From a virus (taxonomy: Duplodnaviria; Heunggongvirae; Uroviricota; Caudoviricetes), in IMG/VR virus record IMGVR_UViG_2778261453_000020: a stretch of DNA of 10,710 bases, one strand, 5' to 3'. A program made the position numbers and the translations under genes. Shown piece after piece: positions 1 to 10,710 of this stretch; within the stretch, counting starts at the first letter, position 1; every line of letters starts with the position of its first letter. The notes beneath the pieces are model-generated. The model saw nothing but the letters and a program-made list of their open reading frames with translations, was not told where the DNA came from and did not search any database.

Positions 1-291
1 AATGAAACACGCCAGTTCGCCCGGATGTTGGGACTTGAACCGAAGAACACGGCGGTGCGGAGTCCGGAGAGTAACGGAATAGCAGAGAGCTTCGTGAAAA
101 CGATAAAGCGTGACTACATCAGTATCATGCCCAAACCAGACGGGTTAACGGCAGCAAAGAACCTTGCAGAGGCGTTCGAGCATTATAACGAATGGCATCC
201 GCATAGTGCGCTGGGTTATCGCTCGCCACGGGAATATCTGCGGCAGCGGGCTTGTAATGGGTTAAGTGATAACAGATGTCTGGAAATATAG
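1..291 (+). CDS. insD: IS2 transposase OrfB/InsD, C-terminal fragment (5' end outside window)
   Basis: Same frame as track ORF 25-291 but open back to nt 1. Stop TAG at 289-291 lies inside the terminal inverted repeat. Sequence recognition from memory of IS3-family integrase-core C-termini. Confidence 0.7.
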
Positions 292-302
292 GGGCAAATC
301 CA
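1..302 (+). mobile_element. IS2 (IS3 family) right end, partial; the window begins inside the element
   Basis: The frame open from nt 1 translates to ...[40 protein letters not shown]...[29 protein letters not shown], which I recognise as the C-terminus of IS2 OrfB/InsD. The terminal sequence ...CAGATGTCTGGAAATATAGGGGCAAATCCA ending at 302 matches my recollection of the IS2 right inverted repeat. The exact end is from memory, not alignment. Confidence 0.7.
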
Positions 303-1910
303 AGTATCACGTATTCCTCTAAAGCCATCTCTGAAAATATGGTTATCAACAATGGCCGCGCTAATGTCTGGGCTGGCACAATGGTTAACGTGTCAGTCAG
401 AGGGAATGATGGCATTCTTGAGGTCATGAAGCCGCAAATAAATTATGCACCCGCTATGTTGGTGGGTAAGGTAGTGGTTTCTGAGGGCGCTTCTTTTAGA
501 ACGCATGGTGCCGTGGATACCAGCAAAGCGGACGTTTCGCTCGAAAATAGCGTATGGACCATCATTGCCGATATCACTACGACGAACCAAAACACCCTCC
601 TCAACTTAGCCAACCTTGCGATGTCTGACGCAAATGTGATTATGATGGATGAGCCAGTGACTCGTTCATCAGTGACGGCAAGTGCGGAAAATTTCATTAC
701 GTTGAACACCAATACCCTGTCGGGAAACGGCAATTTTTATATGCGTACCGATATGGCTAATCATCAGAGCGATCAGCTCAACGTCACCGGTCAGGCAACA
801 GGTGATTTCAAAATATTCGTGACGGACACCGGTGCCAGCCCGGCAGCAGGAGATAGCCTTACACTGGTAACAACGGGCGGCGGTGATGCTGCATTTACGT
901 TGGGCAATGCCGGAGGCGTTGTTGATATCGGTACGTATGAATATACCTTGCTGGATAATGGCAACCATAGCTGGAGTTTGGCAGAGAATCGCGCGCAAAT
1001 TACCCCTTCAACCACTGATGTGCTGAATATGGCGGCCGCACAACCGCTGGTATTTGATGCAGAACTGGACACCGTGCGTGAGCGTCTTGGTAGCGTAAAA
1101 GGCGTTAGTTACGATACGGCGATGTGGAGTTCGGCAATTAACACCCGCAACAACGTGACCACTGATGCGGGAGCTGGTTTTGAGCAAACATTGACGGGCC
1201 TGACGCTCGGTATCGATAGCCGTTTCTCCCGTGAAGAAAGCAGTACAATTCGCGGCTTGTTCTTTGGTTACTCTCATTCTGATATTGGTTTTGATCGCGG
1301 CGGAAAAGGTAATATCGATAGCTATACCCTGGGGGCTTATGCCGGTTGGGAGCATCAGAACGGTGCCTATGTTGATGGGGTGGTGAAAGTTGACCGTTTT
1401 GCCAACACCATCCATGGCAAGATGAGTAATGGGGCAACAGCGTTTGGCGATTACAATAGTAACGGCGCGGGTGCTCATGTTGAGAGCGGGTTCCGTTGGG
1501 TTGACGGATTGTGGAGTATTAGACCCTATCTGGCCTTTACCGGCTTTACCACAGATGGTCAGGACTACACGTTATCAAACGGCATGCGCGCTGATGTGGG
1601 AAATACCCGGATATTACGCGCTGAAGCGGGAACGGCGGTAAGCTATCACATGGACCTGCAAAATGGTACGACGCTGGAACCCTGGCTGAAAGCCGCCGTA
1701 CGTCAGGAATACGCCGATTCTAACCATGTGAAAGTTAATGACGATGGCAAATTTAATAATGATGTGGCTGGAACCCGTGGCGTTTATCAGGCTGGGATAA
1801 GGTCATCGTTTACCCCGACGTTAAGCGGTCATTTGTCAGTCAGCTATGGCAATGGCGCAGGGGTAGAATCGCCGTGGAATACTCAGGCGGGTGTGGTCTG
1901 GACGTTCTGA
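303..1910 (+). pseudogene. Type Va autotransporter adhesin, C-terminal passenger and beta-barrel portion; gene interrupted by IS2
   Basis: Track ORF 276-1910 has its ATG inside the IS2 end, so that start is an artefact. Translation is Gly/Thr/Asn/Ser-rich with repeated passenger-like segments and ends ...NTQAGVVWTF with a terminal aromatic residue, typical of autotransporter barrels. The 5' part of the gene must lie beyond the IS outside the window. Confidence 0.7.
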
Positions 1911-7215: not shown

Positions 7216-7435
7216 AAATTTTCTCCCTTATTCTTTTAATGTCCTCATTAAGGATGTCTGTAACTTTTATCAGCGAGTTTTTGGCAATTATTTTTATTGT
7301 TTTAAGTTTTCTTTTGTCGTGCTCCGACTGTGATTTTCTCTCCATAATCTCCACCATGTGGGTAACATCAACGAGCGCACGTATCAGTATTTGCATTGCT
7401 TCTTCTGCTGCGTCCGGACGGGTGTTATTGCACAT
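7205..7435 (-). CDS. Hypothetical protein, 76 aa
   Basis: Track ORF 7205-7465, trimmed to the ATG at 7435 (AGGGGG 6 nt upstream) because the longer form would overlap the Icd-like gene by 40 nt. The C-terminal half is encoded in an AT-rich stretch (about 7205-7330). Confidence 0.4.
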   Translation of the reverse strand: MCNNTRPDAAEEAMQILIRALVDVTHMVEIMERKSQSEHDKRKLKTIKIIAKNSLIKVTDILNEDIKRIREKICDA

Positions 7436-7598
7436 GGCACACCCCCTGACGAATACGGGCGACAAAAATCAGATGTGCGTGCGGCAGCTGCGCACGGGCT
7501 TCGCGCTCAGTGGCAGCGGTAACGGTGAAAATATCAATGTTGCTGTGGTGGCACTGCATAAAGCGCCAGACAAAGTAAGGGCGTGCGGATACAGCCAT
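7425..7598 (-). CDS. Icd-like (host cell-division inhibitor family) small protein, 57 aa
   Basis: MAVSARPYFVWRFMQCHHSNIDIFTVTAATEREARAQLPHAHLIFVARIRQGVCHVQ*, with GGGAG 8 nt upstream of the ATG. Paralogous to the 7885-8082 ORF (shared FVWRF, TEREAR, ARIRQG). The Icd-like assignment is from memory of P1/P4-type family patterns. Confidence 0.5.
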   Translation of the reverse strand: MAVSARPYFVWRFMQCHHSNIDIFTVTAATEREARAQLPHAHLIFVARIRQGVCHVQ

Positions 7599-7762
7599 GT
7601 GAAAGGCTCCCAGATGAATTATAAGGAGTCTCGCTACTACGCTGCTAAACGGGGTGGCGAGACGTAACAGGGTTAGCAGACTGGTCATCTGGAAACCAGC
7701 GAGCGCAAAGGCTCCCCCGTTACGCCCCGCCATAATGCGGGTATGGGTAGGTTTACGGACAC

Positions 7763-7884
7763 AAAAAAACCGCTTATCGGATGTGGGCGGCTGTCCGCCA
7801 GATGTATTCAGGCTGCTAAACCCGGTCGCCATGTGGGCGACGGGGGAAGCATACAGCCCCGTGATAATTTTTTGCAAGCGGTTT
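7763..7884 (-). ncRNA. Candidate structured RNA (multi-stem, cloverleaf-like) ending in a U7 tract, between the two Icd-like genes
   Basis: On the minus strand, AAAAACCGCUU (7884-7874) can pair with AAGCGGUUUUU (7775-7765). This encloses hairpins GGGG/CCCC, GUCGCC-CACAU-GGCGAC and GGCGG-ACAG-CCGCC. Folds were judged by eye only. Confidence 0.25.
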
Positions 7885-8082
7885 TTACGCATGATGTGAC
7901 CCCTGACGAATACGGGCGGCGAATACAGCAACACAACCTGACGGGCAACGGTTACGCGCTTCGCGTTCCGTCCAGGCGGTTACGTGGATGATTTGAGATT
8001 CTCCGGCACTCAGGGCCAGAAAACGCCACACAAAGGCCGTTTGTGTGTGTACAAGGTGTGGTATATGATTTACGGCAACCAT
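7885..8082 (-). CDS. Icd-like small protein, 65 aa
   Basis: MVAVNHIPHLVHTQTAFVWRFLALSAGESQIIHVTAWTEREARNRCPSGCVAVFAARIRQGSHHA*, with AGGAG 5 nt upstream of the ATG. The track shows this as the 3' end of a 288-aa ORF, which I reject. Confidence 0.5.
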   Translation of the reverse strand: MVAVNHIPHLVHTQTAFVWRFLALSAGESQIIHVTAWTEREARNRCPSGCVAVFAARIRQGSHHA

Positions 8083-8170
8083 AACGGCTCCTAGTTTACG
8101 TTGTTGGTTAGACGCCCCGTATGTGTTCCCAGCACTGCGGGGCGTTGATTTTTGTGTAATGGCAAGTACA

Positions 8171-8219
8171 ATGGTAATTACCATGTAGGTATAGTAATGA
8201 AGGGTAATTACCATGTCAA
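8171..8219 (-). promoter_or_regulatory. Sigma70-like promoter (TTGACA-17-TACTAT) for the icd/replication operon with two palindromic operators
   Basis: Minus-strand -35 TTGACA (8219-8214), 17-nt spacer, -10 TACTAT (8196-8191). Perfect palindrome GGTAATTACC at 8203-8212 sits in the spacer. ATGGTAATTACCAT at 8171-8184 sits at about +1 to +14. Confidence 0.5.
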
Positions 8220-8386
8220 CACCATTAGAAAAACGTTCGCCTCCATACCAAATGCGATTACCGGAAGACTTCAGAGCGCAGCTAGAAGAAGCAGCTAAGG
8301 CCGATGGCGACACATCTTTAGCCACTTGGATTAAACGCGTTCTCCGCAAAGAATTACAGCAACGCGGCATAGAACCCAAAGGATAA
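8213..8386 (+). CDS. Ribbon-helix-helix (Arc/MetJ-like) DNA-binding protein, 57 aa; candidate repressor
   Basis: Hand translation MSTPLEKRSPPYQMRLPEDFRAQLEEAAKADGDTSLATWIKRVLRKELQQRGIEPKG*. YQMRLPEDFRAQLEEAAKADG...SLATWIKRVL fits the beta-strand/helix/helix pattern of Arc-type repressors. It is divergent from the operator-bearing promoter. Not in the supplied track; its own promoter was not identified. Confidence 0.55.
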   Translation: MSTPLEKRSPPYQMRLPEDFRAQLEEAAKADGDTSLATWIKRVLRKELQQRGIEPKG

Positions 8387-8443
8387 AAACTATCAGCGCC
8401 GTGGTGTGAGGTATTACGGCGCATTGCTATGCAGGACAACACA

Positions 8444-8617
8444 ATGACCGATAAAGAATTGACCAAAACATTATCACCGGCACGGAAAAGACGGCGCAGA
8501 AAGATAGAGCATGAATCAGAAAGATTCGCGCCATGTGCTTTTGCCCTTGAGCAATTCCTTAAAGAGTATAGGGAAAAGCGCTCATTGCAGGTATGGCAAC
8601 GAACTGAACCAGACTGA
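8444..8617 (+). CDS. Possible small basic protein with arginine-rich motif, 57 aa
   Basis: In-frame part of track ORF 8429-8617; AGGA lies 7 nt upstream of the ATG at 8444. Contains ARKRRRRK. It sits between the RHH gene and the terminator at 8712-8739. Coding status is uncertain. Confidence 0.25.
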   Translation: MTDKELTKTLSPARKRRRRKIEHESERFAPCAFALEQFLKEYREKRSLQVWQRTEPD

Positions 8618-8711
8618 TTGCATTGCCCACCAGCCTGATAGCGGCTATCATCCCCGTGCTTATTTTTGGGATCACATACACATAAGGCGCAGCGGGTTAA
8701 TTGTTCAGAAA

Positions 8712-8739
8712 GGCGGCTCCATATCGGGGCCGCTTTTTT
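8712..8739 (+). terminator. Rho-independent terminator
   Basis: GCGGCUCC-AUAUC-GGGGCCGC (8-bp stem with one G-U pair) followed by U6 at 8734-8739. The reverse-strand hairpin has a mismatch and a poor U-tract. Confidence 0.65.
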
Positions 8740-8765
8740 CGTGTTTGTCATATCTGTGATACCCG

Positions 8766-8972
8766 TTAAGCAGCCGTTCCGCGTGCTTCCTGTTCGCGTT
8801 CTTTCTGCCAGGCCAACACATCATCCTCATACCATCCGCGACGGCGTAAACCAACGCGAAAACCCTGCGGAAATTCTCCGGCGTTGATCATGCTTTGCAG
8901 CGTGCTGTCTGCCTTGATGTGGATAATTTTTTTTACTTCCTGGCGAAAGATAATTTTTCTGATTGCTTCCAT
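8766..8972 (-). CDS. alpA: AlpA-family (phage Vis/AlpA-type) DNA-binding regulator, 68 aa
   Basis: ...KIIHIKADSTLQSMINAGEFPQGFRVGLRRRGWYEDDVLAWQKERE... matches the AlpA helix-turn-helix pattern. It lies next to a P4-type integrase, as is usual for such islands. Confidence 0.7.
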   Translation of the reverse strand: MEAIRKIIFRQEVKKIIHIKADSTLQSMINAGEFPQGFRVGLRRRGWYEDDVLAWQKEREQEARGTAA

Positions 8973-9105
8973 CGTGATTTACCTTGTGAATCCGGTGTAT
9001 TCCGGTGACAAATACGGTAAATCATCGGATATGGGTAAAAACAGTTCCCACCGTTTTTAAACGGTATACACCGTTTTTTATATTGATGATTTGAAATGGA
9101 ATTAT

Positions 9106-9129
9106 AAAAAAAGCGGCATTTCTGCCGCT
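9106..9129 (-). terminator. Rho-independent terminator after the integrase operon
   Basis: Minus strand reads GCGGCA-GAAA-UGCCGC followed by U7, 11 nt after the stop of ORF 9140-9391. Confidence 0.65.
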
Positions 9130-9139
9130 TCCAGGATTG

Positions 9140-9391
9140 TTACCGCCATTTTTTGGGCCTGCCTCCGATCTTCATAGATGCCGGACGTACGACCTTATCA
9201 ATACTTACCGCCAGATTTCTGGAAGCGCCACGGGATACCAGAAAATCTACTACCTGTTTTTTTGATGGGGCCGTCGTCCTGTCCTCCGGATCGTAGGTTG
9301 ACCAAAATTCATGCTGAACCATCAGGGCCAGTTGCAGCCCGTCGCAATTGCATCTGATATTTTTTTGCATCTTAACGGTTTCATGTTTCAC
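9140..9391 (-). CDS. Hypothetical small basic protein downstream of the integrase (83 aa from GTG, 76 aa from ATG at 9370)
   Basis: Track ORF with GTG start and weak Shine-Dalgarno sequences at both candidate starts. Basic C-terminus ...KIGGRPKKWR. Coding status is uncertain. Confidence 0.35.
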   Translation of the reverse strand: MKHETVKMQKNIRCNCDGLQLALMVQHEFWSTYDPEDRTTAPSKKQVVDFLVSRGASRNLAVSIDKVVRPASMKIGGRPKKWR

Positions 9392-9468
9392 GGCCTTGTC
9401 GTTAAATTTGATGCAATTATACGACGGTTTTACATGGTTTTCGTAGTTTTTACTGGTTTTCTGTACAG

Positions 9469-10710
9469 CTACACGGCTCGGATACCCCTTTTACCACTGG
9501 CGAGGGTTACGCCCGTCGCCGCAGCCTCGACAAATTCGCCCCACCAGCGCATCAGCACGATGCGTTTTTCTATGTAGTTGCTCCGGTTGTATGCCCGTCT
9601 AACTTCGTTGGTGTCGACGTGGGCAAGTGCCGCCTCTATTACGTCCGGCTCGAATCCTTCCTCGTTCGCTGCTGTGCTGAATATGGCGCGTAATCCATGA
9701 GACACCAGCACGCCAGCAAATCCCATACGCCGCAATGCTGCGTTAGCTGTCTGGCTGTTCATCGGCTGCTGTGGGTCTTTCAGGCTTGGGAAAACGTAAT
9801 TGCGGTGGTGGCTGATTGGTTTCATGGCCTCCAGCACCGCCATAGCCTGACCGGAAAGCGGGATAACGTGATCCCTGCGCATCTTCATGCGTCCGGCAGG
9901 TATCGTCCATTGCTTCGCGTCCAGGTTGATTTCATCCCACCGCGTTGATGACGCTTCGGCGGGACGGGTTACGGTCAGTAACTGCCATTCAATCAGTAAT
10001 CTGGTCTGCCGTTCTGTTGCCGATACTGATAAAGCCTGCATAAGCTCCGGCAGCTGTTCGGGGCGGATTGTTGGCATATGTTTTTTTACAGGTGAGGGAA
10101 ACGCCTTACGCACATTCATAGCCGGATTGGCATCAATCAGCCCACTGTTGGCGGCGTAATCCATTACCTCATTAACGCGCTGTAAAACCCGCTTGAGTGT
10201 TTCCAGGTTGCCGCGCTCCTTGATGGGTGTAAGCACCTCAACGAATCTTCGGGCGGTGAGGGTATCTATTGGCGTGTTGCCGATGAACGGGAATACATAT
10301 TTATCCAGCGAACGCCAGATGTCTTTAATCGTGTTGGGGGCCAGATTCTGGCTGATTTTCACCTGGTACCATGCCGCCGCCACATTTTCGAACGTGTTCC
10401 CTTGTCTTCGGGCCTCTGTCTCTCTTTTTTGCCTCTCGTGGTCCTGCGGGTCAGTTCCGGCACGAATTAACGCCCTGTACTCGCTACGGCGTTTTCTGGC
10501 ATCAGCCAGGGAAACATCTTCAAGCGATCCAAAACTCAGCAATATTCTTTTTTTGTCCGATGGTCGGTAGTAGGAAAATCTCCAGAGTTTTGATCCAGAC
10601 GGTTTGACCAGGAGAAAAAGCCCTCCGCCGTCCTGCAGGGTGTACTCCTTTTGCGCTGGTCTGGCTGCTTTGATCTGCACTGTGGTTAATGGGTGTGTTT
10701 TTCTCGCCAT
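9469..10710 (-). CDS. P4-type tyrosine integrase, 413 aa
   Basis: N-terminal ...GLFLLVKPSGSKLWRFSYYRP... arm-binding-like domain. Catalytic-core motifs: R in ...TVTRPAEAS..., HGLRAIF (H-x-x-R), and ...ALAHVDTNEVRRAYNRSNYIEKR with the likely catalytic Tyr. The ATG is the final base of the window, so the promoter and attachment site are outside it. Confidence 0.85.
   Translation of the reverse strand: MARKTHPLTTVQIKAARPAQKEYTLQDGGGLFLLVKPSGSKLWRFSYYRPSDKKRILLSFGSLEDVSLADARKRRSEYRALIRAGTDPQDHERQKRETEARRQGNTFENVAAAWYQVKISQNLAPNTIKDIWRSLDKYVFPFIGNTPIDTLTARRFVEVLTPIKERGNLETLKRVLQRVNEVMDYAANSGLIDANPAMNVRKAFPSPVKKHMPTIRPEQLPELMQALSVSATERQTRLLIEWQLLTVTRPAEASSTRWDEINLDAKQWTIPAGRMKMRRDHVIPLSGQAMAVLEAMKPISHHRNYVFPSLKDPQQPMNSQTANAALRRMGFAGVLVSHGLRAIFSTAANEEGFEPDVIEAALAHVDTNEVRRAYNRSNYIEKRIVLMRWWGEFVEAAATGVTLASGKRGIRAV

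Follow-up and report, generated by a model that had tools for sequence, protein, structure and literature searches.

A probable C4/CI-type RNA immunity cassette, crossed by a long open frame, between two icd-like genes of a phage satellite

The minus strand of positions 7854..7607 in the window, by which we mean the whole 10,710-nucleotide stretch of viral DNA analyzed here (IMG/VR record IMGVR_UViG_2778261453_000020), is very probably the RNA immunity cassette carried by a small integrated phage satellite, and the same device as the c4 system of the P1/P7 immI region and the seqA–CI–seqC system of P4. An earlier reading of the letters alone had anticipated a C4/CI-type immunity RNA between two icd-like genes, and such an RNA is borne out by an Rfam C4 match, by homology to P1/P7 c4, by compensatory base changes, and by covariation between its loop and its targets (Table 1). 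A covariance-model search with the Rfam C4 family (RF01695), proposed with that reading as a check, returned 71.6 bits against a gathering threshold of 45 (E = 9.5e-13), with model positions 1 to 87 aligned to 7737..7650 of the minus strand. The annotated c4 loci of P1 and P7 share 74 to 79% nucleotide identity with window positions 7640–7829, and alignment to the P1 record NC_005856 maps a1, b1, c4, a2, and b2 onto the window. The minimum free energy structure of the window C4 is the family fold, a long closing stem around two hairpins and a single-stranded segment (−46.7 kcal/mol, z = −5.3), and the GCCACC 3′ end conserved in C4 is present as well. Related loci were collected with DNA patterns anchored in C4, which replaced a protein-pattern search (Icd alignment, one genome per species) that had yielded only four loci. 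The covariation analysis across relatives, also suggested beforehand, was positive for the C4 stems: 96.6% of cells are paired (37 to 54% in slid controls) and seven pairs show double, compensated changes, values reached by none of 500 shuffles. C4 and CI are named among RNase P substrates (PMC5499578), and by analogy the window C4 may be excised by RNase P as a stable RNA of about 77 to 79 nt that would act in trans as an immunity repressor.

Table 1 Features of the cassette and its flanks, in window coordinates
Feature	Position	Strand	Basis or detail
Strong sigma-70-like promoter TTGACA, 17-nt spacer, TACTAT	8191..8219	−	Promoter scan, 10/12 consensus
icd-like 1, 65 aa	7885..8082	−	NCBIfam NF033153 phage_ICD_like, E = 5e-18; stop TAA 7887..7885
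Long open frame, 155 aa from ATG 7892	7425..7892	−	ORF list; through leader, terminator, and C4 into icd-like 2
Candidate weak internal promoter, 18-nt spacer	TTGCAA 7877..7872; TATGCT 7853..7848	−	
Leader hairpin A, GUCGCC-CACAU-GGCGAC	7825..7841	−	Within Rfam c4-a1b1 match
Leader hairpin B, CGGG/CCUG, displays a1 in loop	7809..7824	−	Aligns with P1 a1
a1 target UUAGCAG	7819..7813	−	Aligns with P1 annotated a1; in loop of hairpin B
b1 target CAUCUGG	7804..7798	−	Complementary to C4 b′; aligns with P1 annotated b1
Hairpin H3, GGCGG-ACAG-CCGCC	7799..7786	−	
Terminator T, AGCCGC paired with GCGGUU, then U-run	7792..7787; 7773..7768; U-run 7769..7763	−	
C4/CI-type antisense RNA	7650..7737	−	Rfam RF01695 full-length match, family fold, covariation
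Mature C4 RNA, predicted	about 7731..7653	−	Homology with 77-nt P1 c4
C4 b′ loop CCAGAUGA	7692..7685	−	
C4 a′ single-stranded segment CUGCUAA	7679..7673	−	
a2 target UUAGCAG	7648..7642	−	Aligns with P1 annotated a2
b2 target UCAUCUGG(GA)	7617..7607	−	Aligns with P1 annotated b2
icd-like 2, 57 aa, position of P4 kil	7425..7598	−	NF033153, E = 3e-15

The C4 RNA is flanked by two pairs of sites complementary to its b′ and a′ segments, a1/b1 upstream and a2/b2 downstream. In every locus examined a1 is the exact complement of a′, and a2 likewise matches a′. Each of 85 distinct related loci carries perfect complements of its own b′, 7 to 8 nt long at the b1 position and 7 to 9 nt long at b2 (85/85 in both cases), and these complements sit at about −104 and about +50. 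The three elements b′, b1, and b2 change together in all 85 loci, a three-way covariation that spans no fewer than 24 a/b combinations, to which satellites add further types; new specificities appear solely as matched b′/b1/b2 triplets. The cognate b′:b2 duplex of the window is predicted at −22.0 kcal/mol, against −6.8 to −15.6 kcal/mol for 18 noncognate targets, and the means across loci are −19.2 kcal/mol for cognate and −10.2 kcal/mol for noncognate pairs. The b2 site overlaps the Shine–Dalgarno sequence of icd-like 2 (GGGAG, 7611..7607), so that the complementarity to an icd ribosome-binding region that was to be sought is found in the pairing of b′ with b2. Disruption or mismatch is seen in some of the related loci (L137, L146, L161, L147, L151, and L153).

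Directly upstream of C4, the leader has the layout of the family, with two hairpins, a1 in the loop of the second, then b1, and a terminator with its U-run; it aligns base for base with the P1 a1/b1 annotation, and it is the equivalent of P4 seqA and of Salmonella IsrK. Its covariance-model scores fall below the Rfam gathering thresholds, narrowly for c4-a1b1 (RF03163, 7854..7805, 45.5 bits against 46.7, E = 4.6e-9) and by more for isrK (RF01394, 7841..7763, 36.8 bits against 50, E = 4e-5), the latter shortfall accompanying a longer terminator loop in the window. Hairpin H3 and terminator T share a CCGC segment and are therefore mutually exclusive. The stem of T is short (six pairs including a G-U, with a 13-nt loop) and was missed by a simple terminator scan. 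Hairpin A changes from G-C to A-U in loci L132 and L133, and in other backbones, Gifsy-1, and P4 its arms are wholly different yet complementary; H3 has an outer pair, formed with the last base of b1, that covaries between G-C and A-U; a GCGG..CCGC..GCGG-U-run layout is common to all backbones; and the terminator stems are compensated in P4 and Gifsy-1 (isrK matches of 60.8 and 79.3 bits). Since MAFFT did not cleanly align hairpin A across backbones of different length, these cross-backbone statements rest on inspection and Rfam matches rather than on a pair count. A further hairpin, ACGGGG/CCCCGU (7858..7840), was left out of the RNA structures because its support is mixed (85% paired, with several breaks) and it overlaps the candidate internal promoter.

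The motif ATGTGGGCG, reported earlier as occurring twice on the plus strand, does have exactly two matches there, at 7781 and 7831 (chance expectation 0.14; two or more matches in 1 of 200 shuffles). We rejected a functional role for the duplicated CGCCCACAU as a repeat: its first copy spans the hairpin A loop and the 3′ end of the hairpin A 5′ arm, and its second the H3 3′ arm and the terminator loop. This second copy is kept in 4 of 12 distinct satellite variants and becomes CGCUUACAU or CGCCCAUAU in the other eight.

Both flanking icd-like genes show the third-position excess of protein-coding sequence, with diversities by codon position of 0.19/0.15/0.32 for icd-like 1 and 0.10/0.12/0.20 for icd-like 2, and the stop of the latter (7427..7425) is overlapped by the next ORF, whose ATG is at 7435. 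The strong sigma-70-like promoter predicted upstream of icd-like 1 likely feeds transcripts into the cassette. The candidate internal promoter agrees with the consensus at 8 of 12 positions and was absent from the promoter-scan output; its counterpart in the alignment to P1 (NC_005856) is the promoter P1c4/P51b, and transcripts from it would begin near 7841, at the first leader hairpin. The surrounding island encodes an integrase (9469..10710), DUF4222, an AAA_25/RepA helicase, a small terminase, and capsid genes. Its E. coli copies adjoin tRNA-Pro, between yejM and yejO, in a family of islands that carry Icd-like genes in tandem arrays of two or three, and the gene content conforms to the plan of phage-inducible chromosomal islands (PICIs): integrase, HTH/AlpA-type gene, Ash/Icd ("Bro") genes, replication, few late genes, and a tRNA site. 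Of 5426 complete E. coli genomes, 1018, or about one in five, contain a match to window positions 7400–8100. One carrier strain, E. coli O26 E2865, is 99.6% identical over window positions 8083–9468, upstream of the cassette.

The cassette is crossed by an open frame. The icd-like 2 frame is open from 7934 to 7425, that is, over 169 codons from GTG 7934, and between the two icd-like genes it contains no stop, as the original prediction had observed, against six in each of the two other frames. Its ATG at 7892..7890 overlaps the icd-like 1 stop (ATGCGTAA at 7892..7885) and is preceded at 8 to 11 nt by AGGGG. Of 31 distinct variants chosen by a DNA anchor, 28 keep the frame open; the satellite variants are close relatives, 85 to 99% identical in the cassette region, so that their open frames are not independent observations. 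The closed frames are those of L140, L146, and L161, two of which are recombinants whose b′ is mismatched to their own b1/b2. The region is exactly 286 nt long in every matched variant, despite three different pairs of compensating indels, one of which joins a −1 in the b1 cassette to a +1 some 105 nt off, in the b′ loop; since the indels in the b1 cassette and the b′ loop are co-adapted, so that 286 nt and the frame are retained, they would argue for selection on the open frame. In P1-type loci there is a stop between C4 and icd in 83 of 107 cases, and translation through C4 is thus not generally needed for C4 function. The window frame matches the nested-gene arrangement of P4 eta and kil and is the counterpart of eta. 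We tentatively suggest, as an idea we rate a little short of evenly balanced, that the frame through leader, terminator, and C4 is kept by selection and that ribosomes crossing the RNA gene constitute an ancient and general bypass switch of C4/CI systems, represented by P4 eta, Gifsy-1 orf45, and the window frame, alongside a large orthogonal repertoire of a/b specificities in satellites, P1-like plasmid prophages, and lambdoid prophages.

How the frame is read bears on what the conserved element is. That the region simply encodes an "Icd-like protein" of 155 to 169 aa, with incidental RNA features, is the least likely of the readings we weighed, even if public annotation leans that way: PGAP annotates the homologous frame of E. 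coli JNEC-KY203 as a 155-aa "Icd-like protein," RefSeq lists the 155-aa frame and no RNA at that place in close relatives, more than 120 protein clusters of 152 to 155 aa exist in public data, and the frame is open in most variants. The family match is nevertheless confined to the last 45 or so residues (NF033153 matches frame residues 121–163 only), and no Pfam model matches the long frame or the Icd-like proteins. Unlike the flanking icd genes, the extension shows no third-position excess (0.023/0.036/0.016 by codon position), and its diversity is roughly tenfold lower than theirs. The variable blocks of the predicted 155-aa proteins coincide with RNA recognition sites, one hairpin is read in two frames among variants (GGQPP versus ADSRL), and coding leaves the C4 covariance-model match and the covariation unexplained. 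The original prediction had named a conserved 169-aa protein as its alternative; what we find is a frame that stays open over a sequence that evolves as RNA. An RNA cassette crossed by a functionless frame, open through chance and shared descent among close relatives, is a more serious contender and yet, in our judgment, rather unlikely. Twelve stops would avoid one given frame with a probability of about (2/3)^12, or 0.8%, which is not extreme for a post hoc observation; the close identity of the satellite variants, the P1-type loci that work without an open frame, and the naturally closed variants all fit this account. Set against it are the constant 286 nt with its three compensating indel pairs, the mismatched specificity of two of the three closed loci, and the ATG that overlaps the upstream stop behind AGGGG. 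Furthermore, the conserved RNA is read in the same phase by P4 eta and, to judge from position, by Gifsy-1 orf45, two systems for which translation has been reported to be important (PMC4825925 for Gifsy-1 and, for P4, the summary given in PMC10111431).

Two other readings accept an RNA or its remains and differ over its nature. The original prediction had proposed a closing stem with three internal hairpins and a U7 end. Region 7611–7884 does fold better than shuffles on both strands (z = −3.4 and −3.5), and 7884..7763 of the minus strand folds as proposed (−44.8 kcal/mol, z = −3.2, equalled by none of 200 shuffles), with AAACCGCUU (7884..7876) paired to AAGCGGUUU (7775..7767), hairpins inside, and the U-run after. 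This element is the leader and terminator and not the C4 RNA, which lies downstream of U7 and outside the closed structure in which it had been placed. It is very unlikely that the functional RNA is a single multi-stem small RNA of that extent held by the long-range stem, although the minimum free energy structure includes the stem and a short U7-terminated leader RNA is plausible, as with IsrK in Gifsy-1 (PMC4825925). We rejected the closing stem as a conserved feature: six of its nine pairs are invariant, none is compensated, and the three that vary merely break in relatives, with a U-U mismatch in 8 of 12 loci and two further pairs lost in L028. Judging by P1, IsrK, and the Rfam models, transcription would begin downstream of the 5′ arm of the stem, and this arm overlaps the candidate −35 element; it is absent from P1-type and other backbones, in which the local terminator is retained, and the family-defining C4 falls outside the structure. 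Still less likely is a decaying, inactive relic of a P1-like immI region. The leader scores under the gathering thresholds and the disrupted or mismatched loci listed above would suit a relic, but outside the recognition sites the cassette is near-invariant (π about 0.02) while the flanking genes vary, new specificities arise as matched triplets, and the region recurs in a fifth of complete E. coli genomes.

On the model of P1, P4, and IsrK, this immunity cassette would work as follows. Transcription from right to left would first yield some 80 nt of leader, in which a1 is displayed by the second of two hairpins; next would come b1, and then H3 in competition with T and its U7; transcripts that read through would carry C4. 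By analogy with P1 and P4, RNase P would cut out C4, which would accumulate, and its b′ and a′ segments would pair with a2/b2 over the icd-like 2 ribosome-binding site and block translation of this gene, and polarity might then lower expression of the downstream replication genes (DUF4222 and the RepA-type helicase). C4 could also pair with a1/b1 in the leader, and because b1 abuts and partly enters H3, such pairing would probably favor T and limit read-through. Ribosomes initiating upstream may translate through leader, terminator, and C4 into icd-like 2, which would prevent the terminator and the RNA from forming, so that immunity would be bypassed when the upstream promoter fires.

These results correct the annotation of the region, in which the conserved element is an immunity RNA with its targets rather than the 155-aa "Icd-like protein" of RefSeq, and place an RNA immunity switch of the P1/P4 type ahead of the replication genes of a common E. 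coli satellite. Orthogonal pairs of RNA repressor and target could be drawn from the modular recognition sequences, which in nature diversify only as matched triplets. This regulatory cassette is of a known kind, real but ordinary, and leaves the understanding of C4/CI systems as it was.

Relatives of this cassette have been described in several settings. Gram-negative PICI/HE-PICI satellites follow the same plan as the window island (integrase, HTH gene, Ash/Icd-type genes, replication, and late genes), and in several of them the Rfam C4 and isrK models detect CI/seqA relatives in the "Bro zone," for which a role in immunity was proposed (Mageeney et al. 2023, PMC10111431); specificity types and the open frame are outside the analysis of that paper. 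In Gifsy-1 (isrK–orf45–anrP), IsrK is an a1/b1 leader with terminator, behind which orf45 contains a full C4 match of 69 bits. IsrK was described as a short leader RNA that activates in trans, with c4 unmentioned (Hershko-Shalev et al. 2016, PMC4825925); an "IsrK-C4 immunity system" had already been described (PMC3632133), and the link of IsrK/orf45 to a1b1/C4 is therefore not new. Gifsy-1 orf45 is translated, is conserved in nucleotide and not in amino acid sequence, and is coupled to the next gene (PMC4825925), a behavior that parallels that of the window open frame. Unlike the window frame, orf45 is short and starts at the conserved C4 AUG, and the gene downstream of it is an antirepressor, in a lambdoid prophage.

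In sequence, the immI regions of P1 and P7 (c4–icd–ant1/2) are close relatives, where the 74 to 79% DNA identity runs from a1/b1 through c4 to a2/b2, and the window RNA is much nearer to these c4 sequences than to P4 CI. In P1/P7 and the window alike, the gene next downstream is of the Icd family and has b2 over its ribosome-binding site. The window a′ is identical to that of P7, whereas its b′ specificity is new relative to P1/P7 and comes with matching b1 and b2. Further downstream, the window has replication genes without an antirepressor, in contrast to the antirepressor of P1/P7, and the place of one window Icd-like gene is taken in P1 by nothing but the promoters P51a/b and the C1 operator. 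The frame through C4, open in the window, is the one closed in most P1-type loci.

In its organization, the cassette resembles that of P4, whose immunity region runs PLE–seqA–cI RNA–seqC and includes eta and kil as nested genes. The order of parts is the same: a leader with targets and terminator, a C4-family RNA (P4 CI matches the C4 model at 74.9 bits and is preceded by the isrK-like leader), and a second pair of targets whose b-type member overlaps the Shine–Dalgarno sequence of a short gene, kil in P4 and icd-like 2 in the window. The Icd-like profile gives a weak alignment to Kil (hhalign probability 43%, E = 2.4e-4, 46 columns, 30% identity), and a small Icd HMM search of P4 gave no match. 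Ahead of the long frame, the window has an Icd-like gene and P4 an alpA/vis homologue, and the window island has capsid and small-terminase genes and a RepA-type helicase where P4 instead has alpha, sid, delta, and psu. The P4 frame of 214 aa (8812..8168) overlaps CI and ends in the 65-aa kil segment; like the window frame, it is codirectional with the RNA gene, runs in the same phase, and ends in the short gene downstream. Both frames read ..RFFCV.. over the U-run, both take a Met codon from the conserved AUGG of C4, and both start on an upstream stop, in P4 with ATGATGATG overlapping the stop of orf88. Translation of eta prevents termination and overrides immunity in P4, at least as the work of Forti (1999) is summarized in PMC10111431. 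P4 and the window island are both satellites, and in both the cassette stands ahead of the replication genes.

Rfam returned a single match above gathering score in the whole window, a full-length C4 antisense RNA between the two Icd-like genes (71.6 bits versus a gathering score of 45; E = 9.5e-13). By blastn, positions 7640-7829 share 74 to 79% identity with the c4 loci of P1, P7, D6, RCS47, SJ46, and other P1-like phages, and annotation transferred by alignment from the richly annotated P1 record falls on the window in the order a1, b1, c4, a2, b2, icd start, where a1/b1 and a2/b2 are the upstream and downstream targets of the RNA. Folded by itself, C4 adopts the structure of the family (-46.7 kcal/mol, z = -5.3). 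Among 17 diverse C4 sequences, 96.6% of cells are paired in this structure versus 37 to 54% with slid partners, seven pairs are changed on both sides, and 0 of 500 shuffles attain the observed values. The original prediction of a C4- or CI-type RNA is essentially correct and the finding is real. GCGAGAC (7634..7628, minus strand) is an alternative pairing partner for GUCUCGC (7663..7657), the 3' arm of the closing stem of C4; before processing of the transcript, this pairing would put a2 in a hairpin loop. The equivalent positions of P1 read CCUGC/GCAGG, apparently compensatory as judged by eye only.

Features of the probable immunity cassette and its surroundings
Feature	Coordinates	Strand	Remarks
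Integrase	9469..10710		
icd-like 1	8082..7885	minus	65 aa; NCBIfam phage_ICD_like, E = 5e-18
"a1, b1 targets of C4" motif	7854..7805		Rfam 45.5 bits (gathering 46.7); just upstream of C4
isrK match	7841..7763		Rfam 36.8 bits (gathering 50); just upstream of C4
a1	7819..7813		UUAGCAG
b1	7804..7798		CAUCUGG; carries change matching the window's b'
C4 antisense RNA	7737..7650	minus	
b'	7692..7685		CCAGAUGA; differs from P7
a2	7648..7642		UUAGCAG
b2	7617..7608		UCAUCUGG(GA); carries change matching the window's b'
icd-like 2	7598..7425	minus	57 aa; NCBIfam phage_ICD_like, E = 3e-15

Target recognition in P1 uses two parts of C4: b', the loop of its second hairpin, pairs with b1 on the upstream side and b2 on the downstream side, and a', the single-stranded segment that follows, pairs likewise with a1 and a2. 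The window's a' is CUGCUAA, the same as that of P7, and the expected complementarity to an icd ribosome-binding region is found in b2, which overlaps the Shine-Dalgarno sequence GGGAG of icd-like 2. A pattern scan of viral contigs in which b' and part of a' were left free yielded more than 120 loci; in 85 of 85 distinct loci a perfect 7- to 9-nt complement of the locus's own b' lies at approximately -104 and +50, and a' matches both a sites. These loci hold at least 24 a/b combinations, and further b types occur in satellite-type loci, each time as matched triplets. The mean b':b2 duplex energy is -19.2 kcal/mol for cognate and -10.2 kcal/mol for noncognate partners, and the window's b' is predicted to pair at -22.0 kcal/mol with its own b2, versus -10.7 and -12.1 kcal/mol with the P1 and P7 targets. 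Sequence comparison thus strongly supports antisense interactions that are functional and that determine specificity, and the size of the matched repertoire is a modest addition of this work. Five satellite-type loci on viral or metagenome contigs (L146, L161, L147, L151, and L153) have a b' that mismatches their own b1 and/or b2, and may be real recombinants escaping or losing self-immunity, or assembly chimeras of co-occurring satellites. The b' specificity CCCAAUUUG is found on two cassette backbones (L029 versus L030/L072), one with a promoter upstream of the leader and the other with an Icd-like gene, which could reflect exchange of specificity cassettes or cross-immunity of different elements.

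The multi-stem fold ending in a U-tract is likewise present, with 7884..7763 folding at -44.8 kcal/mol (z = -3.2) into a closing stem, AAACCGCUU/AAGCGGUUU, around hairpins followed by seven U; this structure corresponds to the leader upstream of C4 and not, as had been proposed, to C4 itself. Kept across several backbones are hairpin A, whose arms are wholly different between backbones yet complementary, hairpin B, whose loop holds a1 and which is followed by site b1, and a GCGG..CCGC hairpin (H3) followed by a second GCGG and the U-run. Both GCGG segments are possible partners of the CCGC between them, which makes H3 and the alternative terminator hairpin T mutually exclusive. Since the outer pair of H3, which covaries as G-C/A-U, uses the final base of b1, C4 bound at b1 would compete with H3 and favor T; this inference fits the published account of P4. 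The closing stem was rejected as a conserved feature: six of its nine pairs are invariant, none is compensated, and the changes in the three variable pairs are all disruptive: 8 of 12 satellite variants have a U-U mismatch, and locus L028 loses two more pairs. A candidate -35 box overlaps the 5' arm of the stem, and the RNA start in P1, in IsrK, and in the Rfam models lies downstream of this arm. The motif ATGTGGGCG was found twice, as described (chance expectation 0.14); the second CGCCCACAU copy was rejected as a functional repeat, as it consists of the H3 3' arm and the terminator loop and is unconserved.

The reading frame of icd-like 2 is indeed open back to 7934, with no stops between the genes versus six in each other frame. 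In close relatives, the counterpart of this frame carries a PGAP annotation as an Icd-like protein of 155 aa, with a start equivalent to ATG 7892, and clusters of 152- to 155-aa proteins number more than 120. The 169-aa frame is nevertheless not a conserved protein, the finding named at the outset as one that would refute the RNA; this is shown by the codon-position diversity of the extension (0.023/0.036/0.016; icd-like 1, 0.19/0.15/0.32; icd-like 2, 0.10/0.12/0.20), by the Icd model, which covers only the last ≈45 residues, and by the variable blocks of the predicted proteins, which are the RNA recognition sites. Furthermore, H3 is translated in two different frames among variants.

The long frame nevertheless looks maintained, being open in 28 of 31 distinct complete satellite variants picked via a DNA anchor regardless of ORF status. 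Each of the 13 two-icd loci measured has a region of exactly 286 nt, a length retained despite three different pairs of compensating indels; this indel-compensated open frame is a further modest addition. The three closed cases comprise one U6-for-U7 deletion and two putative recombinants (L146 and L161) with a 9-nt b' loop that matches neither b1 nor b2 of the same locus and that also breaks the frame. A frame open simply by chance and descent is the unlikelier explanation, and it keeps an appreciable share of the weight because in P1-type loci the frame is usually closed (83 of 107) and the sampled satellites are close relatives. By analogy with P4, we read the long frame as a putative bypass frame of the eta type, with icd-like 2 as the gene in the position of kil.

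Upstream, icd-like 1 is the end of a 288-aa open frame (7885..8751, minus strand) that starts just after the HTH gene and whose upstream part is an incomplete "Icd-like protein" in E. coli E2865 (PGAP) and a separate 222-aa hypothetical protein in JNEC-KY203. There may be two tandem eta/kil-like units, with the RNA cassette in the second only; the 288-aa frame of the first gave no Rfam match. Both Icd-like genes end in ..ARIRQG (7907..7890 and 7450..7433, minus strand), and the CAGGGG of these codons lies 8 to 11 nt upstream of an ATG that overlaps the stop codon of the same gene (ATGCGTAA; ATGTGCAATAA). Thus the conserved C terminus also supplies the following frame with a ribosome-binding site, which suggests that each Icd-like gene is coupled to the frame behind it, like icd to ant1 in P1. 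Within the icd-like 1 coding sequence (8047..8027, minus strand) is a terminator-like hairpin whose tail is T-rich (CACACAAACGGCCTTTGTGTG GCGTTTTCTG). Two near-perfect palindrome copies, ATGGTAATTACCAT (8171..8184) and GGTAATTACCATG (8203..8215), flank a strong minus-strand promoter (TTGACA-17-TACTAT, 8219..8191), and the plus strand of the same area (8171..8219) has a promoter-like site in divergent orientation and a small ORF (8213..8386) with a weak YlcI/YnfO-like match. This area looks like an operator-controlled divergent promoter, possibly the main switch of the satellite.

The window encodes an integrase, small regulators, the two Icd-like genes (P1/P7 Icd aligns with both products), DUF4222, a RepA/AAA_25 helicase, a small terminase subunit, and a capsid gene, and is a satellite of the Gram-negative PICI class. 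In E. coli, near-identical or similar islands adjoin tRNA-Pro between yejM and yejO, and 1018 of 5426 complete genomes match window positions 7400-8100; the RefSeq annotations examined give proteins and no RNA feature at the cassette. An autotransporter C-terminal fragment at the left end (276..1910, plus strand; Pertactin and Autotransporter beta-domain) corresponds to the chromosomal yejO flank. Three loci (L051, L072, and L115) have three consecutive Icd-like genes, with the leader and C4 between the second and the third, pointing to repeated tandem duplication of the Icd unit.

Among known relatives, P4 has a CI RNA that matches the C4 family with 74.9 bits and follows an isrK-like leader (60.8 bits, a score above gathering). 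The P4 frame 8812..8168, with three ATGs giving 197 to 199 aa, begins at the upstream gene's stop, traverses leader and CI, and ends in a 65-aa kil segment whose Shine-Dalgarno sequence is covered by a b-type site. Both frames read the conserved RNA in the same phase (..RVFFCV.. and ..SMVAQAG.. in P4; ..KRFFCV.. and ..IMAGRNGG.. in the window). As Forti et al. 1999 is summarized in PMC10111431, P4 Kil is made from a short transcript under immunity control, and full-length Eta is translated only from an upstream promoter, its translation preventing termination. The IsrK of Salmonella Gifsy-1 occupies the place of the a1b1 motif (48.1 bits), and its terminator is immediately followed by a full C4 (69 bits) within orf45, which starts at the same conserved C4 AUG (transcript start 34316 + 106 nt; PMC4825925), the 5' end of the C4 match (34210..34131). 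Gifsy-1 orf45 is translated and coupled to the next gene, with its nucleotide but not its amino acid sequence conserved (PMC4825925). The 2016 IsrK paper makes no mention of c4, and RefSeq P4 still has a 137-aa "cI gene product" CDS (8168..8584) across CI RNA; in both, the RNA gene was described or annotated as a protein. The P4 CI/C4 and IsrK/a1b1-C4 equivalences are in print (Barquist et al.), PMC5499578 includes C4 as well as CI among the substrates of RNase P, and the Rfam C4 and isrK profiles match several Gram-negative PICIs and helper-embedded PICIs (Mageeney et al. 2023, PMC10111431). The cassette belongs to the well-studied kind represented by P1 c4 and P4 CI, and its presence in this satellite class has been published before.
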